This document shows, in pieces, positions 2,134 through 48,989 of a DNA stretch of 64,000 nt. Below the pieces are notes generated by a model, which was given only the letters and a program-made list of their open reading frames with translations, made no database searches and had not been told where the DNA came from. A program made the translations under genes and the position numbers. Each line of letters starts with the position of its first letter. Positions within the stretch are counted from its first letter, which is position 1. Source of the stretch: Gammaproteobacteria bacterium (lineage in GTDB: Bacteria > Pseudomonadota > Gammaproteobacteria > Eutrophobiales > Eutrophobiaceae); contig JACORW010000101.1 in assembly GCA_016179185.1 (NCBI GenBank), positions 2,204 to 66,203 on the forward strand, in the 5' to 3' direction.

Positions 2134-2297
2134 TCGGCCGGCTGAAAGCCGGCCCCACAAGTTTACCCACAGTTCATCGCCACTCCTGTGGGGCCGGGTT
2201 TACCCGGCCATCTTCATACCCCGGCCGGCTGAAAGCCGGCGCCACAAGTTTACCCACAGTTCATCGCCACTCCTGTGGGGCCGGGTTTACCCGGCCA
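2134..2297. repeat. two tandem copies of an ~80-bp composite REP family 1 unit, immediately 3' of the RAYT gene
   Basis: ccggccggctgaaagccggc[cg]ccacaagtttacccacagttcatcgccactcctgtggggccgggtttacccggcc is present twice in direct orientation. Confidence 0.9.
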
Positions 2298-2770
2298 ATG
2301 TCACTGACCGTTTGTATCCACTCCAGCCATTTCGCATCCCACAACGGATAAACTCGAATATCCGAGACCAACCCCGCGCGCAGCGGATTGGCGACTATAT
2401 ATCGCGCAACTGTCGGCAAATCTTCTTCGTGCCGCAGCGCATGATCGTAGTATCCGCGTTGCCAAATTTTTCCCGATACACCTTTGGCACGATGGATTGC
2501 CCGGGTCGAACGACCCTTCAGCTTGCGCATGACATTTGACAGGGTGGCGTCCCTCCCAAGCTGGATGAGCCAATGCAAATGATCCGGCATCAGCACCCAT
2601 GCCATGGAATTCACCGCTCCGCACACGTGCAGCGCGCGCATTTCCCTGACCACCAGCCGGGCGACGATCAGGTCCGCGAACCATGGCGCCCGCCGTTCCG
2701 CGGTGGCCGTAACGAAGTAGAGCTGGTGTGGAATGGATACACGTCCTTTGCATAATTTGAAATATCCCAT
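2261..2770 (-). CDS. rayT: REP-associated tyrosine transposase (RAYT; IS200/IS605-like Y1 transposase)
   Basis: HxH motif (PDHLHWLIQ) and the C-terminal catalytic tyrosine region (IWQRGYYDHALR). An N-terminal YFVTA beta-strand is typical of RAYTs. AGGAGG lies 6 nt upstream of the ATG at 2770. The gene is flanked on both sides by doublets of REP family 1. The ORF-track extension to 2821 (MWGRLSAGR...) is a translation of the REP. Confidence 0.85.
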   Translation of the reverse strand: MGYFKLCKGRVSIPHQLYFVTATAERRAPWFADLIVARLVVREMRALHVCGAVNSMAWVLMPDHLHWLIQLGRDATLSNVMRKLKGRSTRAIHRAKGVSGKIWQRGYYDHALRHEEDLPTVARYIVANPLRAGLVSDIRVYPLWDAKWLEWIQTVSDIGRVNPAPQEWR

Positions 2771-2795
2771 CCATTGCCTCCTTGCCTGGATTCTC

Positions 2796-2935
2796 CGGCC
2801 GGCTGAAAGCCGGCCCCACAAGTTTACCCACAGTTCATCGCCACTCCTGTGGGGCCGGGTTTACCCGGCCATCTTCATGCCCCGGCCGGCTGCAAGCCGG
2901 CCCCACAAGTTTACCCACAGTTCATCCGACCCACA
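2796..2935. repeat. two tandem composite REP family 1 units immediately 5' of the RAYT gene
   Basis: Same ~80-bp unit as 2134-2297, in the same orientation. Confidence 0.9.
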
Positions 2936-7011: not shown

Positions 7012-9939
7012 TTACGGATCCTCGTTCAGAAGGCTCTCGTTCAGATCGATGTGATAATGGTCATCGTGTCCAAGGAGCGGCTTGATCGTCGAGCTGAGCG
7101 TTGCACCCGCATCGAGTTCCAGAAGTACGGTGTTATCCGCTGCGGTGATTTTTCCGTCCCGGATCAGGCCCCAGGCCCAGCCACTCGGAAGCGGGTCATG
7201 GGGACGGCCAATGATGGTGAATACCTCGCCGACAATGGGATTGCTCGCCAGATTGGCCAGACCGGTCCGCTGGTCGAGGATCCATTGCCTCAGCTCCTCC
7301 GTCGCAGCCTCATCCCCCAGCACGGCATTGGTCGCCAGTTCCTCCGCCGCCAGATAGTTCAGCAAACCGAAGGGATCATCAGTCCCGGCACTGTAAAGTA
7401 CGTCGCCAAAATGGAAGATGTCTATGTCGGTTCCGGATTTGTGGCCCGCATGCCCGATGTTTCGACCATGCTCCCCCGAAATGTCGTTTATCCGAGTGAT
7501 CAGCGACCCGTACGTTTCCAGCCACTCGAATGTTCCCTTCGAGGCCCAGTCATCACCGCCGACATCCCGCTTTCCGCCGTAGCGGAGAATACCATCGGGC
7601 ATGCGCCACAGCGCCTTTTCAGAGCCGCTGTAGAGCGTGGCGCTCGCCGGCTCACCGTTCACGGTTGCCTCAAACTGGAATTCATACTTGATGTTGTGCG
7701 CCTCAGGCGGCGTTCCATTCACCGGTGAGGTCCTGGGGTTGTCGCCGCCAAAGGTAACCGGCACCCGAAACTCCCTGGGCCCGTAACCCGCCGTAATGGG
7801 TTTTCCGCTGAACGCTGTTTTGCCCAGCGTATCGCCTGCCCCCAGCAACAGTTTGACCGTGACATTGGTGATGTCCGCGGCCTTGACACCGGCCGGAGAT
7901 ATGATCTTGAAATCGTACCACTTGTGAAAGTGGTTCGAACTCAGCCGGCGCGGCACGCTGAAGAAGGTTCCATCCTTGTCCGATCCGGGCATAATCAACT
8001 GGATGTTCAACTCCTGGCCGGCCACCGCGAGCGTCGCGTCCACATAGGTCGGCAGGATGTCGTCGCCGATATTCGTTGCCGACCCCGTCACCGTGATCGC
8101 CGCGTCCTGATCAACGGTGAGCAGCGAGACGTCCAGTGACTCCTTGATTAGCCCGGTGGATCCGGTGGGATCCCAGAAGGGTTCCAGGCTCACCTGCGAA
8201 TTCACGTTCCGTGATATGGAAAACAGCCGCGTCCCGTCGTTGGCAACAACGGCGAGGTCCCAGACATCGTTAAATATACTTTGCGAAAGCACGAATTCCG
8301 GATATTCGGTGGTGATGACCTGGTAGGTCAGTTCCAGTTTTTTCGTACCCATGGGCACCAGCAGTGTCGCCGTGTCCTGGACGCGCTGGTCCTCGAAATC
8401 GGCCGCCGCGCTGATCGTGACCTGCGCCGTCGCCGCGGCCACCAGTCCCTGCGGCGGTGCCCGCGGCACATCCGGCGCCTTCGCGCTTTTTCTCCTGCGC
8501 TGCATTTCCATGGGCCGCGGTTTCAGCAACGCGGGCGCGCTGATGATCGAAAACGGCGGCACGCCATTGACATAATCTTCCGGACCCAGCAGCGTGATCT
8601 CCAACTGCGTCGCGCCCGTGACAAAAAGCGCGCCGCTGCTGCTGTAAGTGACTTCTCCTTCCTGGTGCTCCAGTTCGAATGCGACGTTTCCCGCGGGCAC
8701 GCCGGTGAGCGTGAAGCTGCCGTCCGCCGCGGTGGCGGCGAACGCCTCGACCTTGGTCCCGAGAACGCGAAACAGGATCTCAGCGCCCTGCGTGGACAGC
8801 TCGGGATTGGATGGCGGCGCAACCACCTGGCCGGAGAGCGAATAACGACCGACACGGAAGGAGAGTGTCCCGTCCAATGACGTACCGTTGGCGGTGCTCG
8901 CGGAGACATGCAGGATCTGCTCGCCGTCCACGCCGAGAATATCGCCAAGGTAGGCTTCCGAAACGGTTCGGATCTCGCCGTTGCCGAGTATTTCAAAGCG
9001 ATCCGTGACATCCACGGTCGTCCCGGTCTGCACCTGTTCCACACTGGCGTTTCCCAGTTGAGTCGGCACCAGCGCGCTGCCGGAGGAGTTCCTGAAAGTC
9101 ACGCTCAACTCGGATGTCGAGGCGGGAACCACCGGGGAAAGATCACCGGTCAGGCGATGATCCAGCGCCACGGCCAGGCCCGCTCCGGTCATCAGCAGCT
9201 TGACCGTCTTGGTCGTGTCCCGGCGGATGGTTACCAGCTTTCCCGCCCCGGCCAGGTAGGGGTCGAAGGCAGTCACGCGATGTTTGCCTGCCGTAGCCTG
9301 GAAATCCAGCACGCCGTTATCCAGCGTCTCGCCGACGAGCTCATTGTCCAGATAGACGGGGATCCCGGCGGCCGCGGGATTCTTCTTGCCTTCGTAAAAC
9401 GTCTGCACGGAAATCGTCCCGGTTCCGGAGTGTTCCACGGATATGCTGACATCAATGGCGGACAGCGGTCGCGCGCCGCTTTGCAATGCAGCGGTCAATT
9501 TTTTCCGTTTCAGGGAGGCAACCTGGACGTCGCTGGGCAATTCCATGAACTCGGTCGCGCTGGCTGCCGCCTTGCCGAACAGGACGATGGAACCCGTGAC
9601 CGTATCTTTCGCCAGGGTTTCGCTTGGAGTGACGATCAGCGTCAGCGTCAGGGTCTGGCCGTTCGCGAGACTTTCTACGCCTCCATACTCGATTGTGGCG
9701 AATTTTGCGATGCTCTTGCTGAGCAGCACCTGGAAGTTGCTGATGGCAAGATTTGCCGTAATGGTGTTGGTCCGGGACACCGTCTGGCCGGCATTGGCGT
9801 TTACGTTCCATTCTGCCTGCGCCCAGTCCACGGCGTTGGCGGCATGCGCCGGCGTGGATACCAGAGTCACAAAGGAGAGGCAGAATATTGCGGTCACCGC
9901 AAGATACTGCGGAAGCATGAGTTTGCGAATATTTAGCAT
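7012..9939 (-). CDS. large secreted multidomain protein with a C-terminal MepA-like (peptidase M74/LAS-family) murein endopeptidase domain
   Basis: Signal peptide MLNIRKLMLPQYLAVTAIFCLSFVTLVSTPAHA, with GGAGG 7 nt upstream of the ATG at 9939. The C-terminal motifs GHAGHKSGTDIDIF and GHDDHYHIDL match the HxxxxxxD ... HxH zinc ligands of MepA-type LAS metallopeptidases. The remainder is beta-rich repeats. Confidence 0.55.
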   Translation of the reverse strand: MLNIRKLMLPQYLAVTAIFCLSFVTLVSTPAHAANAVDWAQAEWNVNANAGQTVSRTNTITANLAISNFQVLLSKSIAKFATIEYGGVESLANGQTLTLTLIVTPSETLAKDTVTGSIVLFGKAAASATEFMELPSDVQVASLKRKKLTAALQSGARPLSAIDVSISVEHSGTGTISVQTFYEGKKNPAAAGIPVYLDNELVGETLDNGVLDFQATAGKHRVTAFDPYLAGAGKLVTIRRDTTKTVKLLMTGAGLAVALDHRLTGDLSPVVPASTSELSVTFRNSSGSALVPTQLGNASVEQVQTGTTVDVTDRFEILGNGEIRTVSEAYLGDILGVDGEQILHVSASTANGTSLDGTLSFRVGRYSLSGQVVAPPSNPELSTQGAEILFRVLGTKVEAFAATAADGSFTLTGVPAGNVAFELEHQEGEVTYSSSGALFVTGATQLEITLLGPEDYVNGVPPFSIISAPALLKPRPMEMQRRRKSAKAPDVPRAPPQGLVAAATAQVTISAAADFEDQRVQDTATLLVPMGTKKLELTYQVITTEYPEFVLSQSIFNDVWDLAVVANDGTRLFSISRNVNSQVSLEPFWDPTGSTGLIKESLDVSLLTVDQDAAITVTGSATNIGDDILPTYVDATLAVAGQELNIQLIMPGSDKDGTFFSVPRRLSSNHFHKWYDFKIISPAGVKAADITNVTVKLLLGAGDTLGKTAFSGKPITAGYGPREFRVPVTFGGDNPRTSPVNGTPPEAHNIKYEFQFEATVNGEPASATLYSGSEKALWRMPDGILRYGGKRDVGGDDWASKGTFEWLETYGSLITRINDISGEHGRNIGHAGHKSGTDIDIFHFGDVLYSAGTDDPFGLLNYLAAEELATNAVLGDEAATEELRQWILDQRTGLANLASNPIVGEVFTIIGRPHDPLPSGWAWGLIRDGKITAADNTVLLELDAGATLSSTIKPLLGHDDHYHIDLNESLLNEDP

Positions 9940-9969
9940 GACAGCCTCCGGACAGCTCAATAAATCAAT

Positions 9970-10014: not shown

Positions 10015-13000
10015 CTATTGATCCAGCAGGAATTCCCGGATTGCCTCCAGGATTGACGATGCTGCCCGCTCATTCACGCGCGGATTCCTGCCGGTGTCAG
10101 CTTCCACCTTGTCGTTCACTCCGTCGCCGTCAGTGTCGCTGTCGTTTGGCGCAGTGCCGAGCTGGAATTCCTCAAAATTGGTCAGGCCGTCGGCATCGCC
10201 GTCCAGGTCGCGGTCCTGGTCGCTCAATGGATTCAGCCCGTTATCGCCCTCATAGCCATCGGCCATGCCATCCCCATCGGAGTCCGGTGCATTCACCAGC
10301 GTTCCCAGTTGCGACTCCTCGAAATTCGTGAGCCCGTCCGAATCGAGATCCAGATCTCTGTCAGCGCCATTCAGCGGGTCAAGGCCATGTTGAATTTCAT
10401 AGTCGTCCAGCATCCCGTCGCCGTCATCATCCACGTCACTGACATTGCCCGTCCCGTCACCGTCCGTGTCCAGTTCGAAATTGACGGTCAGCGCGACGTC
10501 CTGGGTCACGGTGAAGGCACAGGCGGCGGACGCGGATGAGCAGAGATCGGAGCCACCCCACGCCGCAAAGACGGAATATGGGTCGGCCACCGCCGTCAGC
10601 GTCACCAAAGAATCCTGCGGAAAACTTTCCGAACAATCGTCGCCACAGACGATCCCCGCCGGCACCGACTGAACGAGGCCGGTTCCCGTCGCCGCCGGAT
10701 CCTTTGCCACGGAGACATTGAATCCGATCGGCGCGGTATAGGCGCCCCGGCGATAGATCATGCCGAAGTCTCCGTCGCTCAACCACAGACTCTGCCCCCC
10801 GCTCAGCGTGATCCTGTCGCTCTGCACGGCCTGGCTATATAAAGAGGATCCGGTCGCCGCGCCGGCGTCGGGTTTCGAGAACACAATCGCCCCATCGTCC
10901 CCCGTATACCCGGGAACCGAGTAGGAGTAACCGGGAATGGCCGCAATCAGGCCGACCTGGCCGGTAAACAGATCGCCGGCGTAGGCATTCGCCTGGGAGA
11001 TCCCGGACTGGAAGGCATCGAAAGTCAGGAACCGATCGCTGGTCTGCGACAACGCCGGAAAGCCGGTATCCAGTCCCTGGATGGGCGCCACGATCATGCG
11101 GATCTGCGACGTGGAAAGTTCCACGGCGTAAATGCTCCATAGCCCCAGTGCCGATCCGCCGGTATAGGTGACCTCGTTGAATGCGTCGTAGATGAGCGAC
11201 TTTCCGTCCCGGCTGAAGTCCATCGCGTCCGCCGTCACGACGTTTATCGTGCCGCCGTCAATTGCCGGCGCTTGCAGCTTGATGGTTCGATCATTGCTGC
11301 TATCGGCGAGATCCACGAATTCGATCTTGTTTTCGGGGAACCCCTGCGCGTCCAGCAGCACAAATGCAAACTGCTCTCCGCTGGGGGAAACCGCAACGGA
11401 AAATACCAGGCCCGGCAACCCCAGGCACGATTCGACTTCACTCACGCCGGCATTGGTGTTGATTGCGCAGAGATCGTTGATGGAATCCACAAACCAGGCG
11501 AGGGCCCCGTCGCCGGTGACGCTCGGGCGCGTAAATGCAACGGTGCCGCCGCTCAGAAATACCCCGACCGGACCGTCGTTCAAGGCCGTTTCCCGGCGCC
11601 CGAGGAAGAAACCGCCGTAAAACGAGTCGTAAAAAACGAACGCCGTGGAATCGGGGCTGCTTATGGGCGGCTGAGTCGGCGGCGGCGGTGTCGGGGGCGC
11701 AGCGAAGATTTCCACCGCGTCGAATGCCGCGGCGGTCGTGTTCGCCTGGACCGATCCCGCGCCGAACAGTTCTTCGGCCGCCGCGACGGCATTCAACCGC
11801 GCATCCACAAAGTCGGCATCCGGAAACAGCTTGGTGGTCAGGGCCCGATAAAATATTTTGGCTGCATCGAGCGTGCCGATGGCGCCGGGGAGTCCTTCCG
11901 CCAGCAGGTAGAACGCATGATTGACTATGCTGCTGTTGAGATGCACGCCGCCGTTATCCTGCGTCGTGTTGATGTACCCGCTCATGCTTGATGGGCAGGG
12001 AACGCCGAGGCAGTCCACGCTGCCCGGATTTTTCATGTTCCGAAATACCTGGCCGACGTCCTCCCCCACCTTCCAGTCTGCATCGCCCTGCGTACGCGTT
12101 TCCACCATCACGCCGAATATGTCCGCAAGCGACTCGTTCAGCGCGCCGGACTGGCCCTGATAGATCAGATCTGCGGTCGAACTGATCACGGCGTGGGTCA
12201 TTTCGTGGGCCACCACGTCGAGCGCGCCGGCATAGATCCGCTTGTCGCCAAAGGCCATGATTTGATTGCTTGCATCCCAGAACGCGTTGTCGAAATCGAG
12301 CCCGAGTCGCACCAATGCCTGCATGTTCGCGCCCTGCCCGTCAATGGAATTCCTGGCATGTCTTTCGAGGTAGTAGTCATAGGTCTCCGCCAGCGCCCAG
12401 GCCGCGCTCACCGCATCGGCCAGCCATCCGGAGTTCGGATTGGCGGATACCACGTCGGATAGCGGTGTCGGGTAGGACTGGGGATCAGAAGTCGCCGGCT
12501 TGTTCTTGGCATCCAGCACGATGATGCCGCCGATGGTCTGTGACGGGTTCGGAGGCGTGGACGACGGGTTGTACATCGTCTTGCTGGTGTCAACCATATA
12601 GTAGCTGGCGCCGGACTGCCAGACATCGAGAGCACGGCTGATGCCGAACAGATCGAGTCCCGATCCCTGGACATTTGCATTCATGATCCGGTTGAACTTC
12701 CTCAGCACGTTGCCGTGCATGGCATCCACGATTACCACCCAGCTCTCGCTGACGGAGACATCCACTTGGGTCTTCCAGGCTAGCCGGTAGGGCGCATCCC
12801 GCGGCGCAAACACGATGAGTTCGGGTGCGGCCACCCCGGCGTGTTCGTCCGCAGTGACTTCGCTGCGCGCCAGTGCCATCGCCCGCCCCTGGTCCACGGC
12901 CGGCCGATCCAGCAGTTTCCGCGGAATGACCCGGTGGGCGCCCGCCATGAGGTCCACGTGCCCCTGCCCGTCCAGTTGCACCAGCAGCCCCGACGGCCAG

Positions 13001-13596
13001 ACCCGCAATCCCCTGTGCCGTTGCTCGAAGCGGACCTGGGTGCGCCCGAGCTCATCCTGACCCTGGCCAAGAAAGCGGTACTCCTGATCCGGATCGCCCA
13101 CGCCGATTACGTTCCGGTACTTGCGCAGAAACTGCTCGGCGGTGGCCCGTGAGCTGGGCAGGCCTTCCTGGAGCTTGATGCCCCGGATCTGACGCGGGGT
13201 CCCGGTGCGGGAATCCATGCGCACTTCCAGGGGGCGGAGCAAAGGCGAAATCTGTTGTGCCGCGATACTTCTTGTCCGCTGCACCGATTTGATGCCGCCG
13301 CGGGCCGTGCTCCTTGCCGCCTGGGCACCGGGTGCTGATGTTGCGCGCCATTGCGCGATCCAGGTCTTGAGCTGAACTATCCGGGGATCCGCGGCTCGAC
13401 CGGAGGCCGGCGCGGTTGCATGGATCGCGGGCGCACTGGACGCGGGGATCAGCTTGACCTGGGTCTGGGCGCCTTGGGTCTGCGCGGCCGATGCCGCCGG
13501 CAATCCTGCCAGAACGAGAACACTCCAAACACACTGCCGTCGCAGCGTATTAACGCGGGGGTTTGCGGAGCGCATCTTGTTGTAGTTCTTATGCAC
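10015..13596 (-). CDS. giant secreted M4 (thermolysin-like) zinc metalloprotease with InlB-B-repeat-like, Ig-like and C-terminal calcium-binding TSP3-type repeats
   Basis: HExxH (VVAHEMTHAV) and the downstream ESLADIFG glutamate motif of family M4. N-terminal signal peptide (start ambiguous: GTG 13596 or ATG 13575). C-terminal repeats DxDxDGxxDxxE (DTDGDGTGNVSDVDDDGDGMLDDYE...) and the tail GRNPRVNERAASSILEAIREFLLDQ are shared with the S8 giant. Confidence 0.8.
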   Translation of the reverse strand: MHKNYNKMRSANPRVNTLRRQCVWSVLVLAGLPAASAAQTQGAQTQVKLIPASSAPAIHATAPASGRAADPRIVQLKTWIAQWRATSAPGAQAARSTARGGIKSVQRTRSIAAQQISPLLRPLEVRMDSRTGTPRQIRGIKLQEGLPSSRATAEQFLRKYRNVIGVGDPDQEYRFLGQGQDELGRTQVRFEQRHRGLRVWPSGLLVQLDGQGHVDLMAGAHRVIPRKLLDRPAVDQGRAMALARSEVTADEHAGVAAPELIVFAPRDAPYRLAWKTQVDVSVSESWVVIVDAMHGNVLRKFNRIMNANVQGSGLDLFGISRALDVWQSGASYYMVDTSKTMYNPSSTPPNPSQTIGGIIVLDAKNKPATSDPQSYPTPLSDVVSANPNSGWLADAVSAAWALAETYDYYLERHARNSIDGQGANMQALVRLGLDFDNAFWDASNQIMAFGDKRIYAGALDVVAHEMTHAVISSTADLIYQGQSGALNESLADIFGVMVETRTQGDADWKVGEDVGQVFRNMKNPGSVDCLGVPCPSSMSGYINTTQDNGGVHLNSSIVNHAFYLLAEGLPGAIGTLDAAKIFYRALTTKLFPDADFVDARLNAVAAAEELFGAGSVQANTTAAAFDAVEIFAAPPTPPPPTQPPISSPDSTAFVFYDSFYGGFFLGRRETALNDGPVGVFLSGGTVAFTRPSVTGDGALAWFVDSINDLCAINTNAGVSEVESCLGLPGLVFSVAVSPSGEQFAFVLLDAQGFPENKIEFVDLADSSNDRTIKLQAPAIDGGTINVVTADAMDFSRDGKSLIYDAFNEVTYTGGSALGLWSIYAVELSTSQIRMIVAPIQGLDTGFPALSQTSDRFLTFDAFQSGISQANAYAGDLFTGQVGLIAAIPGYSYSVPGYTGDDGAIVFSKPDAGAATGSSLYSQAVQSDRITLSGGQSLWLSDGDFGMIYRRGAYTAPIGFNVSVAKDPAATGTGLVQSVPAGIVCGDDCSESFPQDSLVTLTAVADPYSVFAAWGGSDLCSSASAACAFTVTQDVALTVNFELDTDGDGTGNVSDVDDDGDGMLDDYEIQHGLDPLNGADRDLDLDSDGLTNFEESQLGTLVNAPDSDGDGMADGYEGDNGLNPLSDQDRDLDGDADGLTNFEEFQLGTAPNDSDTDGDGVNDKVEADTGRNPRVNERAASSILEAIREFLLDQ

Positions 13597-13629
13597 CCGT
13601 TTCGCCGGTTACATTCGGCGCACCTCCTT

Positions 13630-14001
13630 CTAATCCGCGATCTCGACCCGGGTCGCCTTCGGCACGCCGCCTTTCCACGCGTAACACCCGCTCATGCCGA
13701 AGCCGACGTTTTTCTGCAGCGAATACGCCGTAAGCGCCGCACTCAGCATGGCCTTCTTGTCCGGGGCGTCTTTCCAGTCAATGACAATATGACTGTATTG
13801 AAACTGCCCGCCGCAATTCAGTTCATTCAGGTATTCCGGGGAAAACTGGACGACGGCGTAGGTGGCGTAAGTAGTGATGGCGGTAATTGACGCTGCCGGC
13901 GGTGACGGCGTCGAATCTTTGACGGCCAATGCCGGAAAACTCGCAAATGCCGATACCAACGACGCCACGACCCATCCCCCGAAACTCTTTGCGGTTTTCA
14001 T
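13630..14001 (-). CDS. small secreted two-cysteine protein, paralog A (unknown function), immediately upstream of the M4 protease gene
   Basis: Signal peptide MKTAKSFGGWVVASLVSAFASFPALA, with GGAGG 7 nt upstream of the ATG at 14001. About 75% identical to the 24034-24405 product (conserved stretches KDSTPSPP...LNCGG...VIDWKDAPDKKAMLSAAL...GC..WKGG.PKATRVE). Confidence 0.75.
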   Translation of the reverse strand: MKTAKSFGGWVVASLVSAFASFPALAVKDSTPSPPAASITAITTYATYAVVQFSPEYLNELNCGGQFQYSHIVIDWKDAPDKKAMLSAALTAYSLQKNVGFGMSGCYAWKGGVPKATRVEIAD

Positions 14002-14048
14002 ATTCGACCTCCAGCGCATGGTCAAGAAAGTATAGCGTTAATCTCCTC

Positions 14049-15266
14049 CTACACCACCAGCTCGTTCAGCCCCAATATCGCCACCAGCACCGACATGATG
14101 ATCAGCGCAATCAGACCGCCGAGTCCGAGGATCAGGACCGGCTCCAGCAACGCCAGCGCCCGCTTGATCGCGATGCGCACATTCCCGTCGTAGATCTCGG
14201 ACGTTTTGAGCAACATCTGATCCAGTTGGCCGCTCTCCTCACCCACTTCCATCAACTGCACCGCGAGCGGCGGAAACAGTCCCGACTTGCGCAGCGGGCC
14301 GGTGAGCGGCAGGCCCTGTTCCAGGCTGGCGCCCATGTCCTCGACCACGGCGGCCAGCGCGCGGTTCCTGACCACGTCGCCCGCGAGACGGATGCCGGTC
14401 AGGATCGGAACGCCGCTGCCCAGCAGGATCCCCAGTGTGCGCGTAAACCGCGCCGTCTCGAACTCCCGGATCACGGTGCCGATGAGCGGCAGCCGGAGAC
14501 AGGCCAGGTCCCAGCGCAAGCGCGGCGCCGGTTGTTCAAGCCGCTTCTTCACGATCCACCCGAGCACAACCAGTCCCGCAAGCAGCGGCAGCCAGGCGTC
14601 GCGGGCGATCCCTGCGGCACCAAACACGAGCCGGGTCAGTAACGGCAGTGTTGCGCCGGCGTCCTCGAACAACGGAATGAACTGCGGCACCACGAACACC
14701 ATGATCGCCGCGAGAGAACACAGCGCCACGACGCACAGGAGTGCGGGATATATCAGCGCCGTCTGGACCGCGGAGCGCAATTCCTGCGACTGTTCCAGGT
14801 AGGTGGCCAGGCGATCGATGACCGGGGGCAGTTCACCGGCAGCCTCGCCCGCGCGGATCAGGTTCACATGCAGCGCAGTGAAATGACGGGGATGCTGCGC
14901 CAGCGCTTCGGAAAGCGATGCGCCACGCTGCACGCTGTCCTGGATCTCCTGGATCAGGCGTTGCAGGGGCGGCGACTGCACGACTCTCGCCAATGTGATG
15001 AGCGCTTCATCCAGCGCCAGACCGGCCTGCAACAGCGTCCCCAACTGCCGCGTCAGGGCGATGATATCCCCGCGCGAAATCAGGCGGGGTCTGACCCCGA
15101 ATGGGGTCAGACCCCATTTCCACGTTGCAATACCCGGGTCCGCGCTGATGGGCAGGTGCCCCTGATCGCGCAGTTGCGCCACCGCGGCGTCCCGGGAGTC
15201 AGCCTCGATCTCCCCCTGTACCACCTGGCCGCCGGGCGCGACGGCCTTGTAGCGAAACTGCGTCAT
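14049..15266 (-). CDS. gspF: type II secretion system inner-membrane platform protein GspF
   Basis: About 405 aa with two GspF/PilC-type repeats (...ALTRQLGTLLQAGLALDEAL...), three TM segments, and operon context with gspE. Contains an in-frame family-2 palindrome (WGLTPFGVRP). Confidence 0.9.
   Translation of the reverse strand: MTQFRYKAVAPGGQVVQGEIEADSRDAAVAQLRDQGHLPISADPGIATWKWGLTPFGVRPRLISRGDIIALTRQLGTLLQAGLALDEALITLARVVQSPPLQRLIQEIQDSVQRGASLSEALAQHPRHFTALHVNLIRAGEAAGELPPVIDRLATYLEQSQELRSAVQTALIYPALLCVVALCSLAAIMVFVVPQFIPLFEDAGATLPLLTRLVFGAAGIARDAWLPLLAGLVVLGWIVKKRLEQPAPRLRWDLACLRLPLIGTVIREFETARFTRTLGILLGSGVPILTGIRLAGDVVRNRALAAVVEDMGASLEQGLPLTGPLRKSGLFPPLAVQLMEVGEESGQLDQMLLKTSEIYDGNVRIAIKRALALLEPVLILGLGGLIALIIMSVLVAILGLNELVV
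15084..15115. repeat. family-2 palindromic element located in-frame inside the gspF coding sequence
   Basis: gcggggtctgaccccgaatggggtcagacccc on the plus strand, translated within GspF as W-G-L-T-P-F-G-V-R-P in the variable linker between the N-terminal domain and the first conserved repeat. Confidence 0.85.
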
Positions 15267-15273
15267 CGCCCGC

Positions 15274-27063: not shown

Positions 27064-27723
27064 TTAATTGCCGTCGTCGCCGGCCTTCGGTGGCACGGCC
27101 GGCGCAGGGTTCACCTCCACCGCCTTTGACTCCTTATTCTGTACCTCTTTCTGTGCCTCTTTGGGCGGTTCCTGCTGTTTGGGCAGGGGAGGCGCGGTCT
27201 TTTTGCCGGCGGCCGGGGACCCCTGAATGCGGAGTTCCAGAGTCCGGACTTCGCTGCCTTTTTCAAGCACCACGGCCTCCGGTTGGATCTCCGCCAGGGT
27301 CCAGCCATTCACGGCCTCACCCACCGCGATCTTGTGCACACCTTTGCCGCGAGCGGTCTCCAGTATGGCCAGGGGCCGTTCATTCGTGATCACGACCGCG
27401 GTAAGTATCATCTCCGCGGGATCCGTCGTTCCGGCGGATAGCTGCGCTGCTCCCGCTGTGGGAGCCGCAGTGGCGATCTGGGCTTTTCGGTCCGGCGAAA
27501 ACAGCGGACGTTCGGTAATCGCGGCATACTCCTGCACGGGCGGGAACGGACGCGCGTCCGGTACCGGTGCCGCCGGGGCCTCGGCGATCAACTTCGCGCC
27601 GCTGTCCGCCTTCACTTCCACCGGCCGCGCGCGGAGCTCGACGACCAGCACGCCGGCAAGCGCCAGCGTTCCCGCGGCCAGGATAAGTTGCAGGATTAAT
27701 TCCGCATTGCGCGTCAGCCGCAT
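27064..27723 (-). CDS. gspN: type II secretion protein GspC/GspN-like (XpsN-like)
   Basis: N-terminal TM anchor (ELILQLILAAGTLALAGVLVV), a periplasmic domain and a Pro/Lys-rich C-terminus. Its position between gspM and gspD matches the Xanthomonas xpsN arrangement. Sequence-level assignment is weak. Confidence 0.5.
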   Translation of the reverse strand: MRLTRNAELILQLILAAGTLALAGVLVVELRARPVEVKADSGAKLIAEAPAAPVPDARPFPPVQEYAAITERPLFSPDRKAQIATAAPTAGAAQLSAGTTDPAEMILTAVVITNERPLAILETARGKGVHKIAVGEAVNGWTLAEIQPEAVVLEKGSEVRTLELRIQGSPAAGKKTAPPLPKQQEPPKEAQKEVQNKESKAVEVNPAPAVPPKAGDDGN

Positions 27724-27726
27724 GAT

Positions 27727-28299
27727 TCACCTGCCGAGAAAACCGGTTGCCGTGAACTGCAGATCGAGATTTCCCGCCGTCGCCGGCGCGCGGCGTGATC
27801 CGCCGCCCTCCCGTGCCCGGACCAGAACGTTATCCAGCAACAACAACGGACGCCCCGATTCCACCGCATGCAGAATGTCCCGCAGCGCCTCCACGTCCAG
27901 ACTGACCTGCACTTGCAAGGACACCGGCGGTAGCGTTTCCCCTTTCTTCGCCGCCATCACGCGCGCGGTCTTCAGACTGCCGCGGTGACTTTCAATGACA
28001 CCTTCCAGGTGCCGCTGTAGTTCCGCCGCCGCCAGCGCGGGCGATTTGCCGCCAAGAAAGGCCGCATTGTCCGCCGGCTTGCCACGCAGCGCCGCGATCG
28101 CTGCCTGCAATTCCGGCACGCGGGCGCCGGCATGCGACATCTTGCCGTACTGGAACTCCAGGATTTCGACCCGTCCGCCGAAATGTTCACGCAGGGCAAG
28201 GGCCGGCGCAACGCAGACGCCATGGATCAGCGCGAGAATGACGACCGTGACACCGGCGCAGATGGCACCGTGCTGCCCGCGCGTGAGCGCCGGCATCAT
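27727..28299 (-). CDS. gspM: type II secretion system protein GspM
   Basis: About 190 aa, single N-terminal TM (AICAGVTVVILALIHGV). Start ATGATG overlaps the gspL stop (ATGA-type coupling). The long ORF-track extension to 28971 is an out-of-frame artifact overlapping gspL. Confidence 0.7.
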   Translation of the reverse strand: MMPALTRGQHGAICAGVTVVILALIHGVCVAPALALREHFGGRVEILEFQYGKMSHAGARVPELQAAIAALRGKPADNAAFLGGKSPALAAAELQRHLEGVIESHRGSLKTARVMAAKKGETLPPVSLQVQVSLDVEALRDILHAVESGRPLLLLDNVLVRAREGGGSRRAPATAGNLDLQFTATGFLGR

Positions 28300-29378
28300 C
28301 GGGAAGGACTCCCGGCGATCCGGGCCGAGACGTGGAACCGGTCCCGCTGCGTCGCGCTGCTGCGCGTGGTGGCGGACGCGAACTGCACGTCCCTGAAATG
28401 ACGCGAGCGATCCAGCAGTTCGATGATCGCGCCGGCGGCCTCCGATTCGCCCTGAAGCTCGATGCGATCGCCCCGGATACTCATCTGGCTGACCCAGGTG
28501 TTGTCCGGCAGCGCCACGGTAAGTTCTCTCAGAAGATCGATGACCGCCACGCGCGTCCCCAGCGTGGCGGCGAGAAACCGCGGGCGGGCCAGCAACAGAT
28601 TGTGTTCTTCCATAAGACTGCGCGCCTGCTCCGCCTGCGGTCGCAATGCGCCGATCCGGGTTTCCAGCTCGCGGACGCGCCAGGCCTGATGGGCCGGCGG
28701 GAGATACAGCGCGGCAAGCAGCGAGGCGAGCAGCAACCAGAAAAGCCGCCGCGTCCGGGCGGATACCATGGGCGCCGGCGCGGGGCGCCGCTCCATCGGC
28801 AGGAGATTCCACTCCACTGCGTCGTCCGGGACCGTAACCCGATCGGGCCGGAGTCCCCAGCGACTGATCCGGTCCTGCAGCGGCTCCAGGTAATCGCGGC
28901 GCGCCACCAGCAATTCCACGCGCAACCGATCCTGTTCCGGCTCGCGCGCGATGATGCGGCAGTCGAACCACACCTTCTCTTCGGTAAACGGCGTCTGCCG
29001 ATCCATGTCGAAGGCAATTACCTTCCTCAAATTTCCCTCCGCTGCCAGGGGCAGAACCAGCGGCTTGCAGAGCACGCGGCTTGAAGGGATACGGACGACG
29101 ACGTTTATGCCCTGTTCACCACGGGAATCGAGGAACGGTTGCAAATACTCTGAAACCTCGCCGCCTTCCCCCTGCCACGACAGAACCTCGCGCCGCACGC
29201 CGGTTTGACCGGCGACATGGGTGATGGAACCGGAATCCGGATCAATGTCGAGCAACAGGAGATCCGGCGGCTGTACCAGGCGGCGGCCCATCGCGGCCGG
29301 CATGAGGCACGCCATGCCGGTCAGCCACCAGCGATAGAACTCCCGCAACGCCGCCACAGGGTGCACTCCGGTCATCAC
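28296..29378 (-). CDS. gspL: type II secretion system protein GspL
   Basis: 360 aa with a cytoplasmic actin-like domain, a central TM (LFWLLLASLLAALYL) and a periplasmic domain. Translationally coupled to gspK and gspM. Confidence 0.75.
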   Translation of the reverse strand: MMTGVHPVAALREFYRWWLTGMACLMPAAMGRRLVQPPDLLLLDIDPDSGSITHVAGQTGVRREVLSWQGEGGEVSEYLQPFLDSRGEQGINVVVRIPSSRVLCKPLVLPLAAEGNLRKVIAFDMDRQTPFTEEKVWFDCRIIAREPEQDRLRVELLVARRDYLEPLQDRISRWGLRPDRVTVPDDAVEWNLLPMERRPAPAPMVSARTRRLFWLLLASLLAALYLPPAHQAWRVRELETRIGALRPQAEQARSLMEEHNLLLARPRFLAATLGTRVAVIDLLRELTVALPDNTWVSQMSIRGDRIELQGESEAAGAIIELLDRSRHFRDVQFASATTRSSATQRDRFHVSARIAGSPSR

Positions 29379-30304
29379 AGCCAGGGATCCGTATCGGCGG
29401 GCGCATCGAGGGTGTTCCCCTCACGCCAGGACAGCACCGAATACGGCTCGGGCCTGCCGGCCTCGATGCGCACAACCGCTTCCAGGACCACGCGGCTGCC
29501 GGCCGCCTGCCCTGCGCTCGTGATCGTGACAATTCGGCCTCTCGCCTGGGAAAGAAGCCGTTCATCCAGTTTGACCGGCAGGGCCGCGCCGCCCGGGTCC
29601 GGCGCGGAGCGCTGCGCAAGGTATTGCTCCGCCTGCTTCGGCGTGATCCCCGGGAGGGCAAGCAGGACATCGCTCACCGCGACTTCGGGATTGATCCCGG
29701 TCTGGCCCGAGTAGACCGTCACGGCACCGCGCAGCCGGTCATAGAGTTCCGCGTCCACCCCGTGCACCAGGCGCAATTCATCCTTCGCCGTGAACGGTCC
29801 GTTTCTGGGTGCATGGCCGGCACCGGCGGCGGCGTAATCCTCCCCTTCCGCCCCGAATTTCCGCTTGCTGTCGTCGGCATCCCGCCAGTCCAGGATGGAT
29901 TGCAGGACCGACACCGATTCATTGCCGTCACCCGTTGCTGACTGGAGCAGGTTGTACAGGAGACCAAGATCGGCGGCATTGAGATCGATTCTGCCCGCTT
30001 CATCCTGGAGACCGATGGCCACCATGCCGTTTTCAAACGCAACATCATGGATCTCGCCCGCGGCCGGCCAGGTGTCCGGCTGCTGCGGGCGCAACAGTTC
30101 GCGCACCGCCAGCCACACGCCCGATTCCGCCAGCGCCCTGGCCTGCGCCGAGGCGCGCAGCCGCGCGGTCAACTCGGCCTCGGTTCGGGCGGTCATGCTG
30201 TAACTGCCCGCGAGCAGCGTCATCAGCGCCAGCAGCCACAGGACGATGGCGAGGACCACACCGCGCTGGCGGCCCAGGGTAGTGATTCTTTCCGAGCCCC
30301 TCAT
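29375..30304 (-). CDS. gspK: type II secretion system minor pseudopilin GspK
   Basis: About 309 aa. N-terminal prepilin-like hydrophobic segment (QRGVVLAIVLWLLALMTLLAG) lacking the conserved Glu5, as is typical for GspK. Operon position. Confidence 0.8.
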   Translation of the reverse strand: MRGSERITTLGRQRGVVLAIVLWLLALMTLLAGSYSMTARTEAELTARLRASAQARALAESGVWLAVRELLRPQQPDTWPAAGEIHDVAFENGMVAIGLQDEAGRIDLNAADLGLLYNLLQSATGDGNESVSVLQSILDWRDADDSKRKFGAEGEDYAAAGAGHAPRNGPFTAKDELRLVHGVDAELYDRLRGAVTVYSGQTGINPEVAVSDVLLALPGITPKQAEQYLAQRSAPDPGGAALPVKLDERLLSQARGRIVTITSAGQAAGSRVVLEAVVRIEAGRPEPYSVLSWREGNTLDAPADTDPWL

Positions 30305-30996
30305 TCCTCTGCACCGTGTTTGGGAGTTCCGAGTTCAATGACAAAAGGCGCGCGGACGGGCTGGGTATCGGCACGCAGGGCGACGGTCACCTCCGGCCAG
30401 GGCGGCGCATCCCGATCACCGTCGAACAAAACCTGCACGAGCTTCGGCAGGCGGGATTCGTTGTTCCAGGCCGCGTGCCATTGCAGCGGATCCCCGCGCC
30501 GTTTTTTGCCGTAATAGCGGAACGACACCGGTCCGATGCCTTCGATGACCGGCAACATCTCCGCGGCCGGATCATTCATGCCCGCGTTGACCGGCATGTC
30601 CCGGACGGAGTGGAGCGGCTGGTAAGCAACCATCAGTGCGCCGCGCCCTTCCTCCGCCGCCAGCCAGCTCAGCGTCAACCGGTGCAATGCGCCGGCGGCG
30701 GTGTGGGCCGGCAGCGGCGCGACGAGCTGCAGGCGATTACTGGTCCCCTGGAACATCAGGCGCCGGTGGTCGCCGTCGGTGATGTGGATCGGCACCGCCT
30801 GCTCGATCTCGCGGCGCAGAAAATGCAGGCCGAGTCTGAGGGCCTCATTGCCGTCCGCGCGCGCCATCGCCGTCTCCCAGCTCCGGCTGGTCACGCGCAG
30901 GCTTCCCAATATCGTCCCCAGAATAAGCGCCAGAATGGTCAGTGCCACCAGCACTTCCACCAGCGTGAAACCCGCGCTCCGCTGCCTGAACATCAT
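30301..30996 (-). CDS. gspJ: type II secretion system minor pseudopilin GspJ
   Basis: Prepilin N-terminus GFTLVEVLVALTILALI. Size and operon position. Confidence 0.8.
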   Translation of the reverse strand: MMFRQRSAGFTLVEVLVALTILALILGTILGSLRVTSRSWETAMARADGNEALRLGLHFLRREIEQAVPIHITDGDHRRLMFQGTSNRLQLVAPLPAHTAAGALHRLTLSWLAAEEGRGALMVAYQPLHSVRDMPVNAGMNDPAAEMLPVIEGIGPVSFRYYGKKRRGDPLQWHAAWNNESRLPKLVQVLFDGDRDAPPWPEVTVALRADTQPVRAPFVIELGTPKHGAEE

Positions 30997-31385
30997 TCCG
31001 CTCCAGGCCCGCCGCTTTCCGGTTTCAGGGTGGACAACCTGAACGATCGCGCTTTGCCCCGATCTTCCCAGCGCACCTCCACGTCCACGCGCCGGAGCCG
31101 CAACAGCGAGTCCAGTTCCGCGGGGGCGCCGTCCTGATACGGGCCCGTCTCAATGGTCCACAGATAACGCTCCGCCGCGACCCCGGACGCCGCAATGCCC
31201 GGCGCATCCGCGGCACTCAGCTCTGTCATCCGCGATTCGGCTATCGCCACGGCCCGGGCGTAGTCCCCCGCCTGAACCACGGAGGCCGTGCCGCGGGCGT
31301 AAATCTGGAATATGACGCCCAGCGCCAGCGCGGCGATGGAAAACGCGACCAGCGTTTCGAGCAGGGAGAAGCCGGCAGCGCGCAT
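30993..31385 (-). CDS. gspI: type II secretion system minor pseudopilin GspI
   Basis: Prepilin N-terminus GFSLLETLVAFSIAALALG. About 130 aa. Confidence 0.8.
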   Translation of the reverse strand: MRAAGFSLLETLVAFSIAALALGVIFQIYARGTASVVQAGDYARAVAIAESRMTELSAADAPGIAASGVAAERYLWTIETGPYQDGAPAELDSLLRLRRVDVEVRWEDRGKARSFRLSTLKPESGGPGAE

Positions 31386-31390
31386 GGAGA

Positions 31391-31867
31391 TCAGCGCGCC
31401 ACCGCAACGCCTCCGGTGATCCAGTTCACGTCAATCCGGTAGCTGCGGGCGGCATGTTCCAGCAGCACGCGCCCGCCGGTGGAGCTGCCGTCAGGGAAAA
31501 ACCGGATCCCGCCGGCGGATGCCGAGTTCCGCTCGGCGTCCGCCGTGGTCAGGGTAATGACGGCGTCCTTGGGCAGGGTCAGATCCCTGGTACGCTCATT
31601 GAGCGAAATGCGCTTCGCGTCCACGTCCACGCCGAGGACGGTTTCGCGGCCTGAAGAAACCGCCGTGTTGCGCGCCAGCCGCAACGCCGCGGCGACCTCG
31701 CGGGCGGCGCTGCTTACCTGCAACTTGTCCAGCGCCGGGGCGAAGACCGGCGGCACGACGGCCGCGGCCAGCGCCAGGATCGCCATGACGACCAGCAACT
31801 CGAGCAGCGAAAATCCCGGCGCGTGGCGGAACACGCTGCGCGGCGATTGCGCAATGTCCCTCGTCAC
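31391..31867 (-). CDS. gspH: type II secretion system minor pseudopilin GspH
   Basis: Prepilin N-terminus GFSLLELLVVMAILALAAA. About 158 aa. Confidence 0.8.
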   Translation of the reverse strand: MTRDIAQSPRSVFRHAPGFSLLELLVVMAILALAAAVVPPVFAPALDKLQVSSAAREVAAALRLARNTAVSSGRETVLGVDVDAKRISLNERTRDLTLPKDAVITLTTADAERNSASAGGIRFFPDGSSTGGRVLLEHAARSYRIDVNWITGGVAVAR

Positions 31868-32280
31868 TCCCAGCTCCGGATATCCTTTGCATCCCCCTCG
31901 CCGCCGGGTGCGCCGTCCGCGCCGAGGGAGACGAGTTCAAAGGCGGCCTGCTCTCCCGGATAACGATATTGGTACTCCCGGCCCCAGGGATCCTTCGGTA
32001 TGACGGATTTCTTCAGATACGGGCCATCCCAGGCGGGCATGCCGGCAGGCGGCTGAACCAGCGCGGCCAGGCCCTCGCCGGCGCTGGGATAGCGGCCGTT
32101 GTCCAGATAAAAGAGATCCAGCGCAGCGCCCAGGTCTTCTATCTGCAACCGGGCGGTGTCGGATTTCGCGCCGCCCAGGTGCTTCATCACCTGCGGCCCG
32201 ACCAAACCCACCAGCAGCCCGAGAATGGCAAGCACCACCAGCAATTCCACCAACGTAAATCCTCGAACCGGGTCACTCAT
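31864..32280 (-). CDS. gspG: type II secretion system major pseudopilin GspG
   Basis: GFTLVELLVVLAILGLLVGLVGPQVM prepilin N-terminus and the conserved LDLFYLDNGRYPS...GL.ALV core of GspG. 138 aa. Confidence 0.9.
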   Translation of the reverse strand: MSDPVRGFTLVELLVVLAILGLLVGLVGPQVMKHLGGAKSDTARLQIEDLGAALDLFYLDNGRYPSAGEGLAALVQPPAGMPAWDGPYLKKSVIPKDPWGREYQYRYPGEQAAFELVSLGADGAPGGEGDAKDIRSWE

Positions 32281-32536: not shown

Positions 32537-33271
32537 ATGAATCGCCAATTCACCTGTTTCGCGCTGTTCCTTGCCCTGGCAATTTCAGGCACTGCAATGG
32601 CCGGAACCAAAAAATTCACGAAGAAATTTCCGCTGGGCGACTGTGTGTTTGTCACGGAAGGCCAGAACCCCTATTTCAAATTGCAGATCGGCCGGGAATT
32701 GCACCTGGACAATGCCGCCTGCGTGGACGCGGGTAACTGCGATGAGCTGGAGGAAGTGATCATCACCGTGCTCGACGAGACCCGGGTTGTGACATTCGAA
32801 ATTGACGGCGTGATGACCCCCGTCACGACACGGGTGGTGGAAGAGAACGAGAGCGTGGACGGCCAGCTCGCGGAGGTGTCCCGGAATTTCTTTGCCGAAT
32901 GCCAGGCCACGCGCGACGTTTACTACTTCGGCGAGGAGGTGGATGACTACGAGAACGGCCAGATCGTCAGTCATGAAGGGGAATGGGAGGCCGGCGTCGA
33001 AGACGCCACGCCCGGCCTCTTCATACCGGGCGGCGCGTTCCTGCTGGGGTCGAGGTATTACCAGGAGTTCGCCCCGGGTATCGCCAAGGACAGGGCCGAG
33101 CACGTGAAGGCCGGGCTGACCATGGACGTCCCGGCGGGAACCTTCGAGGACTGTGTCAAGATCAAGGAGACCACGCCGCTCGAAGAGGGCGAAGTGGACT
33201 TCAAGTTCTATTGCCCCGGCGTCGGCATAGTCATTGACGAAGATCTGGAGCTGACCCAGATCGTCGAATAG
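32537..33271 (+). CDS. secreted hypothetical protein (divergent from the T2SS operon)
   Basis: Signal peptide MNRQFTCFALFLALAISGTAMA, with AGGAG RBS 8 nt upstream. Acidic, six Cys. No recognisable family. Confidence 0.6.
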   Translation: MNRQFTCFALFLALAISGTAMAGTKKFTKKFPLGDCVFVTEGQNPYFKLQIGRELHLDNAACVDAGNCDELEEVIITVLDETRVVTFEIDGVMTPVTTRVVEENESVDGQLAEVSRNFFAECQATRDVYYFGEEVDDYENGQIVSHEGEWEAGVEDATPGLFIPGGAFLLGSRYYQEFAPGIAKDRAEHVKAGLTMDVPAGTFEDCVKIKETTPLEEGEVDFKFYCPGVGIVIDEDLELTQIVE

Positions 33272-46300: not shown

Positions 46301-46362
46301 TGGGGTCGGAGTGAATTATTTTTGGGCATCGCACCAAATGAATTCACTCCGACCCCATTTTC
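46298..46362. repeat. family 4 palindromic element (~62 bp), left boundary of the AT-rich island
   Basis: taatggggtcggagtgaattatttttgggcatcgcaccaaatgaattcactccgaccccatttt. Confidence 0.9.
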
Positions 46363-46380
46363 CGAAAGTAAGATTTCGAG

Positions 46381-46833
46381 TTGCTGAAATTGAATTCACA
46401 TTTCCGATGCGCGTCGTGTGGGAGGCTTGAGGGTGACCTTTCAGACGGGATGGAAAGCGTCACGTTTCTTGGAATGAAATGGTGTCCAATTTGTGCACGA
46501 ATTGGGAAGGGGCGGGAAGGAAGAAAATTTATTTCTATGCCGAGCCCAGGGCGGATGTATGAAAACACTCGGGACGACCCACTGGCTGCGTGGGAGGATT
46601 GCTTCGAGAAGAGACCTAAGAAGCGGATATTGGTAGAGGATGCCAAGGCAGAAATTCGAAGGGCATTGGATCACTGGAATGGGGATAAGTCTTCCGGCTC
46701 GGCAATGCCTGTGTTCTTTGGATGGTTAAGTCGCCACCGCCCATATTTTCTTACGTTTCGAGGACGTGGAGATACATGGCAAAAGGTGCATAGCTGGCTA
46801 CTACAGTATGAGCGTGAAAAAAGTGGCCGCTGA
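46381..46833 (+). CDS. hypothetical zinc-ribbon protein (CxxC...CxxC), island gene 1
   Basis: CASCGRLEG ... CPICARIG cysteine pairs. AT-rich codon usage, distinct from the flanking genome. Start uncertain. Confidence 0.4.
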   Translation: MLKLNSHFRCASCGRLEGDLSDGMESVTFLGMKWCPICARIGKGREGRKFISMPSPGRMYENTRDDPLAAWEDCFEKRPKKRILVEDAKAEIRRALDHWNGDKSSGSAMPVFFGWLSRHRPYFLTFRGRGDTWQKVHSWLLQYEREKSGR

Positions 46834-46897
46834 TTCGTTGGCTCGTCTAGTCAAAGAATGTGGGGGCAAATTTGACTAACACCGAGAGGGTGCTCGG

Positions 46898-47425: not shown

Positions 47426-47456
47426 GGTAAGAGTATTAGAGTTCAGGACCACGGAT

Positions 47457-47520
47457 AAATGGGGTCGGAGTGAATTATTTTTGGGCATCGCACCAAATTA
47501 ATTCACTGCGACCCCATTTT
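47457..47520. repeat. family 4 palindromic element
   Basis: aatggggtcggagtgaattatttttgggcatcgcaccaaattaattcactgcgaccccatttt. Confidence 0.9.
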
Positions 47521-47540
47521 AAGAGCACGACTTCGATGGC

Positions 47541-48371: not shown

Positions 48372-48444
48372 TCGTTTGAGCGTAACCGCACATACATCGT
48401 TAACCGCCGAATAAATTGCAATTATCGATGACAGGTAGCGCTAC

Positions 48445-48879: not shown

Positions 48880-48989
48880 AAAAGACTGGCCATCAGCCAC
48901 AAGATAACGCACTTACTCACACGGCTATGCCCCGAGATTAAGACATCGTTAATGTGTAATTAAACGTAGCCGCGTCAAAAAAGAAAAAA

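Follow-up and report, generated by a model that had tools for sequence, protein, structure and literature searches.

A type II secretion locus with interleaved giant hydrolase genes and a candidate AB5-like family of small secreted proteins

The 64,000-nucleotide stretch of gammaproteobacterial DNA analysed here (contig JACORW010000101.1, hereafter the window) carries on its minus strand a type II secretion system (T2SS) locus into which genes for very large secreted proteins are interleaved. Domain content supports its reading as a complete Xps-type T2SS gene set with large hydrolase genes set between the machinery genes, and very probably it is a locus with exchangeable cargo slots filled by horizontal acquisition. 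New here is a family of small proteins predicted to resemble toxin B subunits that is paired with a C-terminal tail shared by the large enzymes, both previously unannotated. For the fuller picture, an Xps-type locus in which gspE and gspF have moved 3' of gspD and whose junctions serve as slots for mobile cassettes encoding AB5-like complexes, we see an even chance.

Machinery genes and cargo slots

Translated open reading frames (ORFs) were scanned against Pfam and NCBIfam with curated cut-offs, which underlie all domain calls below. The following machinery genes were obtained, and the gene order, strand and coordinates given in a preliminary description of this DNA were borne out. Compared loci are designated by L numbers, L046 being among the closest relatives.

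31864-32280, minus strand: gspG, T2SSG (Pfam) above the curated cut-off
31391-31867, minus strand: gspH, GspH model above the curated cut-off
30993-31385, minus strand: gspI, N_methyl match just below cut-off
30301-30996, minus strand: gspJ, T2SSJ at 23.1 bits against a cut-off of 28, assigned by position and synteny with L046
29375-30304, minus strand: gspK, T2SSK (T2SSK_1st) above cut-off
28296-29378, minus strand: gspL, PilN above cut-off plus a weak PilM_2 match, assigned by position and synteny with L046
27727-28299, minus strand: gspM (XpsM-type), NCBIfam NF040576 T2SS_GspM_XpsM, 118.6 bits against a cut-off of 60
27064-27723, minus strand: gspN/C (XpsN-type), XpsN/GspC at 47 bits against a cut-off of 400, assigned by position and synteny with L046
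24470-26623, minus strand: gspD secretin, Pfam N0, three Secretin_N and Secretin, far above cut-off
15274-16992, minus strand: gspE ATPase, MshEN and T2SSE, far above cut-off
14049-15266, minus strand: gspF inner-membrane platform protein, Pfam T2SSF, far above cut-off

N_methyl is matched by gspG, gspH and gspJ as well as, just below cut-off, by gspI. The gspL product gave PilN and PilM_2 matches only, with no dedicated GspL model in the Pfam and NCBIfam scan, and the L046 orthologue of gspN/C matches Pfam XpsN. The 4-nt overlaps noted in the preliminary description are present at five junctions (G/H, I/J, J/K, K/L and L/M), while H/I and M/N are separated by gaps of 5 and 3 nt, respectively. 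The N-terminus of GspD is lipobox-like both in the window (...LGAGIVCGCQ) and in L057 (550-2745; ...FGTGVLCGCQ), compatible with a self-piloting lipoprotein secretin, so that a separate pilotin may be dispensable. A second T2SSE-family ATPase of 378 aa (55050-56186, minus strand), PilT-like by its size, is unlinked to the gsp locus.

We compared the locus with 45 genomic and 24 metagenomic loci retrieved through GspD, and with further loci retrieved through the small protein described below. The nearest species-level genomes reach a GspD identity of only 64%. Among the closest relatives, GspD of L063 is 80% identical to that of the window, and L046 shares 74% identity in GspD, 79% in GspE and 84% in GspG, with the order G-H-I-J-K-L-M-XpsN-D-small-E-(360 aa)-F. 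In L046, L048 and L063 gspE comes next after gspD or the small gene, and the latter is found 3' of gspD wherever upstream DNA is visible (L046-L049, which represent one organism with an identical small protein, L051/L052 and L053). Distant relatives (GspD identity at or below 59-65%) include the Xanthomonas-type order E-F-G-H-I-J-K-L-M-N-D, an orphan gspD amid sugar-metabolism genes (L002), F-D arrangements (L009, L011 and L061) and a scrambled layout (L012). The position of gspE and gspF downstream of gspD and the small gene is therefore a trait of the lineage, common to its closest members, and the synteny comparison called for by the preliminary description speaks against a local accident.

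Between the small gene and gspE is a slot whose occupants vary. It holds nothing extra in L046; in L063 gspD is followed by IS3 transposase fragments and a 68-aa stub that is 72% identical to the C-terminus of the window's S8 giant, and then directly by gspE; L051/L052 and L057 carry different secreted proteins with CARDB repeats, those of L051 and L057 being low in GC (0.52); and the window carries a 6.7-kb S8 peptidase gene. The GC content at third codon positions (GC3) is 0.52 for this S8 gene and 0.56 for the small gene preceding it, compared with ~0.80 for gspD and gspE, and the compositional boundary runs from ~16.9 to 24.45 kb with the S8 low-GC island at ~0.50. Horizontal acquisition of the S8 gene is the probable cause of this difference from its neighbours. 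The second cassette of the window (small protein A, the M4 giant and a 982-aa protein) is absent in L046, which has a toxin-antitoxin pair after gspF. Variable slots and foreign composition together indicate that the cargo is probably accessory and horizontally exchanged. The proposal of a dedicated secretion-plus-cargo module thus stands insofar as the linkage is real at the level of the lineage; it does not extend to cargo as a fixed, co-evolved part of the operon, as slot contents differ in relatives and the S8 and small B genes are foreign in GC3.

Two further ORFs are of note. In L046 a 360-aa signal-peptide protein with no Pfam match (12095-13177) lies between gspE and gspF, another occupied slot. 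Divergent from gspG in the window is a 244-aa ORF that encodes a signal peptide and matches no family (32537-33271, plus strand); the matching position in L046 holds a 750-aa, tail-bearing S8 protease.

Small secreted proteins, large enzymes and a shared tail

The cargo region encodes two small and three large secreted proteins, as follows.

24034-24405, minus strand: small protein B, 123 aa, predicted AB5-B-subunit-like OB fold, two conserved cysteines
13630-14001, minus strand: small protein A, 123 aa from ATG, paralogue of small protein B
17067-23768, minus strand: S8 giant, 2233 aa from ATG, Peptidase_S8, fervidolysin-like prodomain and CARDB above cut-offs
17070-17180, minus strand: tail at the C-terminal end of the S8 giant
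10015-13596, minus strand: M4 giant (thermolysin-family), 1193 aa, Peptidase_M4, M4_C and FTP above cut-offs
10018-10137, minus strand: tail of the M4 giant, ...DTDGDGVNDKVEADTGRNPRVNERAASSILEAIREFLLDQ
7012-9960, minus strand: 975/982-aa secreted protein with a candidate LAS-type (HxxxxxxD...HxH) C-terminal domain, motif recognised by eye

Small proteins A and B are 67% identical over a gap-free alignment, and B is the positional orthologue of the gene 3' of gspD in the closest relatives. It is identical to a protein of an NCBI metagenome-assembled genome (MAG), HYR49_10735, from an uncultured Gammaproteobacteria bacterium. Close homologues are rare (6 in 5.8 billion proteins); a profile search of 1.84 billion cluster representatives extended the family to 184 members, all but one of ~70-200 aa among the matches listed. 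An alignment of 34 members has a signal-peptide-like N-terminus and two near-invariant cysteines throughout. No Pfam or NCBIfam model covers the family, no toxin-B model was matched at E <= 0.1 across the 34 members, and sequence homology to the cholera, pertussis and Shiga B-subunit families was not detected; the family profile has a single PDB sequence match, to the Shiga-like toxin I B subunit, and this is non-significant (E 0.85). A metagenome scan with the small-protein alignment gave no confirmed locus.

An AlphaFold2 monomer model built from the 34-sequence alignment reached a predicted local distance difference test score (pLDDT) of 85.8, exceeding 90 across the mature domain, and replaced an unusable model from the 6 close sequences (pLDDT 49.6). 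The predicted fold of the ~95-aa mature protein is the OB fold of AB5-toxin B subunits, the cell-binding part of toxins of the cholera or pertussis type, and the modelled protein would be small, secreted and furnished with a long helix of the kind that lines the pore of such toxins. In Foldseek searches the AB5-B-subunit-like class ranked on top with weak E-values.

Two other roles for the small protein were considered. That of a general Xps component was rejected, as the family hidden Markov model (HMM) was negative in every T2SS locus obtained by way of gspD, those whose GspD is at most 65% identical among them. A pilotin role is unlikely: the small protein has no lipobox cysteine after its signal peptide, and gspD is itself lipobox-like.

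The C-termini of the S8 and M4 giants are 59% identical. What they share is a module of an InlB-B-repeat-like domain, TSP3 repeats, the motif GRNPxVNE and an amphipathic stretch of ~15 residues that ends acidic. The tail is confined to the very C-terminus, and its helical character was assessed by eye. The preliminary description had treated the small proteins as extra cargo, and missed both their 67% paralogy and this shared tail, the most informative features of the locus. The remainder of the S8 giant comprises a signal peptide, a weak STN-like segment, a fervidolysin-like prodomain, the S8 and CARDB domains, a phospholipase-C-like segment and Ig-like/Y_Y_Y modules ahead of the InlB-B-repeat-like domain, TSP3 repeats and tail, with the ORF running on to 23924 (a 2285-aa ORF). 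No close homologue of this protein was found, the best match covering 47% of its length at 39% identity; its relatives are giant multidomain S8 peptidases, the few source-named ones of which span several phyla. The M4 giant consists of an FTP propeptide, M4, M4_C, the InlB-B-repeat-like domain, TSP3 repeats and the tail.

Domain identities proposed in the preliminary description were recovered for T2SSE, T2SSF, Secretin, S8 and M4. The phospholipase-C-like segment scored 19.8 bits, below the Pfam cut-off of 26.8, and matched a solved phospholipase C (E 1.6e-6). Assignment of the 975/982-aa protein to Peptidase M74 (MepA) was not sustained: the match to the MepA model PRK09429 (NCBIfam) is faint (E 0.036, 13.5 bits against a cut-off of 272), leaving the motif noted above, and the protein gave no Pfam match at E <= 0.01 and no PDB sequence match. 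It is tied to the system by position only. Signal-peptide-like N-termini were recognised by eye on all three large and both small proteins, and no RTX or other known sorting family is among the Pfam and NCBIfam matches of the giants. Elsewhere in the window, a 527-aa S8 peptidase gene (50806-52389, minus strand) adjoins a TonB-dependent receptor gene (52468-54972, minus strand); this peptidase does not bear the shared tail.

Beyond the window, the small family is linked to large secreted enzymes or toxins in several further lineages. In L046 the 750-aa S8 protein, divergently transcribed at the other end of the locus, carries the shared tail. In L082 a ~33%-identical family member lies between a 618-aa trypsin-like/CARDB/TSP3 protease and a 187-aa TSP3 protein, both of which end ...GRNPLVNExAVIQxIN..ILD[DE]. 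An M10 metalloprotease gene immediately upstream of the small gene in L083 encodes the ending ...IPSILQLLLDE, and an S8 protease near the small gene of L054 ends ...LPWLQLLLE, both being the looser form phi-phi-Q-phi-phi...[DE]. Small gene and enzyme gene lie side by side in L082, in L083 and in the window, where 265 and 54 nt separate the two pairs; in L046 they are apart. The tail HMM found no match in T2SS loci without the small gene save the truncated L063 stub, and a post hoc regular expression for the tail core matched 7 of 3,441 stop-terminated segments, all beside a small gene. A protein search with the tail profile returned short metagenomic fragments only, which confirm the motif and do not reach into the carrier domains. 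We rejected the idea that the tail is simply a feature of giant S8 peptidases, since none of the 119 other homologues of the S8 giant among the matches listed carries it.

Other contexts of the family are more varied. In L081 (8665-18042) four tandem, diverged paralogues stand directly upstream of a gene for a 2383-aa toxin (SpvB/TcdB/Rhs/PT-HINT/ribonuclease) with a Barstar immunity gene, which suggests that the family may partner toxins other than proteases. In L085 (1-10357) and L086 three tandem paralogues end an independent, distantly related T2SS-like operon, just before ligA; the L085 operon runs from F and E through four genes without annotation to a 787-aa secretin, which has STN and cohesin matches, and pseudopilins. 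Together with the window clade, this ties the family to T2SS-type operons in two lineages. Directly 3' of the small genes, we also observed genes for proteins of 77-280 aa in L087 (8724-9326), L054 (3894-4736), L083 (1374-2132) and L082 (2905-3138); those of L054, L083 and L087 are mutually homologous, all four give weak FecR_C matches, and the L087 protein additionally gives a weak GspD-N0 match. The N-terminus of the S8 giant (~23450-23640; residues ~98-156 of the 2285-aa ORF) has a faint STN match (E 0.096), and its HMM comparison with the STN/FecR_C-like proteins of L054, L082, L083 and L087 was not significant (E 0.42).

Possible AB5-like complexes and competing explanations

In all known AB5 toxins five OB-fold B subunits form a ring, its pore lined by one helix from each, into which the C-terminal helix of the A subunit is inserted (PMC11610972). 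SubA is an S8 protease and EcxA/CfxA a putative metalloprotease, a diversity thought to reflect 'A subunit replacement' (PMC11610972). The subunits of cholera toxin pass the inner membrane via Sec, assemble in the periplasm and are exported by a T2SS that recognises the B pentamer (PMC6521164). The window presents the same parts list, namely a B-like protein, S8 and metalloprotease partners, a helix-like tail at the C-terminus, signal-peptide-like N-termini and a T2SS, and it is on this likeness that AB5-like complexes are proposed. The cargo would form two cassettes, small protein B with the S8 giant and small protein A with the M4 giant. Both partners would cross the inner membrane via Sec, the small protein would form a ring by oligomerising in the periplasm, and this ring would receive the hydrolase's C-terminal helix in the manner of an AB5 A2 helix, with the calcium-binding TSP3 repeats acting as a flexible tether between giant enzyme and ring. 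The T2SS would then export the folded complex, the ring supplying the secretion determinant, binding to a target (glycan), or both.

Oligomerisation, docking of tail in ring, T2SS dependence and the biological target are steps that we infer from the parts list, and we consider this helix-in-ring model plausible, at somewhat less than an even chance. The tandem paralogues of L081 and L085 are at most suggestive of a pentameric ring. More broadly, and tentatively, the small proteins may be unrecognised, environmentally widespread AB5-type B subunits, whose rings would capture secreted proteins tailed with GRNPxVNE and a helix and thereby act as a modular tag-and-ring adaptor to the T2SS and/or to glycans on prey or substrate. 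Its cargo would include giant proteases, TSP3 proteins and possibly Rhs toxins.

Several observations weigh against this proposal. The OB fold is common. The tail HMM and the regular expression were built from sequences that they recover, so that only their absences are informative, and no neighbour with a tail was seen up to 10 kb from the small genes of L081, L085 and L087. The L046 small gene is closely packed between gspD and gspE and adjoins no protease; the S8 gene that bears the tail lies on the opposite strand at a distance of 7.5 kb. In the window itself the 975/982-aa protein is without the shared tail, and a hairpin with a U-run 3' of small protein B (23923-23969, minus strand) is a weak candidate for an intrinsic terminator; its fold is not significant (z -1.28), and it was not picked up by the promoter and terminator consensus scan of 9.5-27.2 kb, whose counts were at or below shuffled expectation and which is therefore silent on transcription units. 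No prepilin peptidase (Peptidase_A24; GspO/PilD) was found among the window ORFs scanned; this gene is often encoded elsewhere, which keeps a working system compatible with the gene set.

The L046 arrangement also counts in favour of plain accretion, by which unrelated secreted-protein genes were inserted into a permissive, fragmented T2SS cluster and entered into no physical partnership. The small protein would then be a secretin-associated accessory particular to the lineage, or else some ordinary secreted protein, and the shared C-terminus a TSP3 calcium-binding module spread by domain shuffling. This fits the very plastic gene order of the wider clade (orphan D in L002, F-D in L009, L011 and L061, scrambled in L012), the variable slot contents and IS remnants among close relatives, and the repeat array and RAYT genes of the window (see below), which form an active repeat system. 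We nevertheless regard accretion as rather unlikely, because S8, M4, trypsin-like and enzyme-free proteins have conserved the part of the tail outside the TSP3 repeats (GRNPxVNE and helix), at their very C-terminus and only together with a small-family gene, and because distant family members beside proteases or toxins outside any T2SS locus would go unexplained.

Neighbours of the small gene are mostly proteases (S8, M4, M10 and trypsin-like), and a small gene followed by a protease gene is the typical order of inhibitor-protease pairs. The small protein might accordingly be a periplasmic inhibitor or chaperone, akin to an immunity factor or a detached pro-region, that keeps proteases inactive or folding-competent before export. 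This seems improbable to us, as a single inhibitor fold would then be required to act on four unrelated catalytic classes whose members have the tail in common and not the active site; moreover, the L082 family member also flanks a 187-aa TSP3 protein with no enzyme domain, and the Rhs/RNase toxin of L081 already has its own Barstar immunity gene. A tail that is conserved and strictly C-terminal could alternatively be a sorting or retention signal of another pathway, such as surface anchoring or vesicle loading, in which case the giants would be T2SS-independent and the linkage coincidental or regulatory; the GlyGly-CTERM/rhombosortase signal on VesB, a T2SS-associated protease, is an example of such a tag (PMC13393428). 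The tail found here is amphipathic and acidic, with neither a transmembrane stretch nor a basic end, no NCBIfam sorting-domain model was matched, and the scanned ORFs of the window included no sortase-like partner gene. Known CTERM sorting tags have a transmembrane stretch and a basic end, unlike this tail, and we judge a sorting role highly improbable. Should the partnership of small protein and tail prove false, the locus would remain a clear example of a T2SS operon at whose junctions exoenzyme genes, acquired horizontally, are exchanged.

Other features of the window and comparison with known systems

One repeat feature lies within the locus, in the 440-nt gap from gspN/C to gspD.

26715-27053, strand not applicable: REP-like tandem array, 82 bp x 4.1 copies, 94% matches by Tandem Repeats Finder (TRF)

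The array had been correctly noted in the preliminary description. Related 87-bp arrays at 2135-2297 and 2795-2960 share GCCGGCCCCACA...TGTGGGGCCGG with the 82-bp unit and flank, on both sides, one of two RAYT-type (Y1/IS200-like) transposase genes (2261-2821, minus strand); the other, at 49005-49712 (minus strand), adjoins a second low-GC island at ~46300-49000 (GC 0.51-0.53 compared with ~0.63). This island was probably acquired as well and contains one weakly UDG-like ORF besides four small ORFs that match nothing in Pfam. An Rfam scan of the whole window gave no family at its gathering score.

To our knowledge, there is no known linear secretion signal for T2SS substrates, the B pentamer of cholera toxin and heat-labile toxin (LT) being the one clear case of recognition, and the known AB5 toxins have small A subunits and come from pathogens. 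If the proposal is true, a B-like gene in a T2SS operon and a portable C-terminal tag would constitute a testable, modular recognition route and give T2SS substrates a portable recognition handle. Free-living bacteria would be using the AB5 design to deploy very large hydrolases, and the AB5 principle would extend beyond a few pathogen toxins.

The nearest parallel to the first cassette is SubAB, with an S8 protease A subunit and a B ring. SubA has 347 aa and the subAB genes are ordered A then B, whereas the S8 giant, at 2233 aa, has numerous additional domains and a TSP3 tether, and the order here is B then A. SubB has no detectable sequence homology to the small protein. SubAB is known from Shiga-toxigenic E. 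coli; the window derives from an environmental MAG, for which we infer pentamer and docking. For the second cassette, EcxAB/CfxAB offers a metalloprotease A subunit on a B pentamer, indicating that different protease classes can be recruited to the B5 platform (PMC11610972). EcxA, a putative metzincin, is paired with a B subunit of cholera-like type, whereas here a thermolysin-family M4 protein of 1193 aa would be joined to a B-like protein of an unannotated family. Cholera toxin and LT follow the same route as that proposed, from Sec through periplasmic assembly to T2SS export, with the signal held by the B pentamer (PMC6521164). Such a signal would account for the retention of a B-like gene within a T2SS operon. 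The ctxAB genes, for their part, are not within the eps operon.

Linkage of cargo and machinery has a precedent in E. coli, where sslE, encoding a secreted protein of ~180 kDa, belongs to and is co-regulated with the yghJ-pppA-yghG-gspC-M cluster (PMC3707838), and the assertion in the preliminary description that T2SS operons carry no substrates was therefore too strong. The sslE gene is at the 5' edge of its cluster and encodes a lipoprotein with neither paired small subunits nor a shared tail, whereas the cargo of the window stands between core genes. Likeness to the Xps T2SS is found in the XpsM-type GspM, the weak XpsN match, the PilN-matching GspL and the position of D as the last gene of the G-to-D block; the window differs in having E and F downstream of D and a lineage-specific small gene inserted after D.

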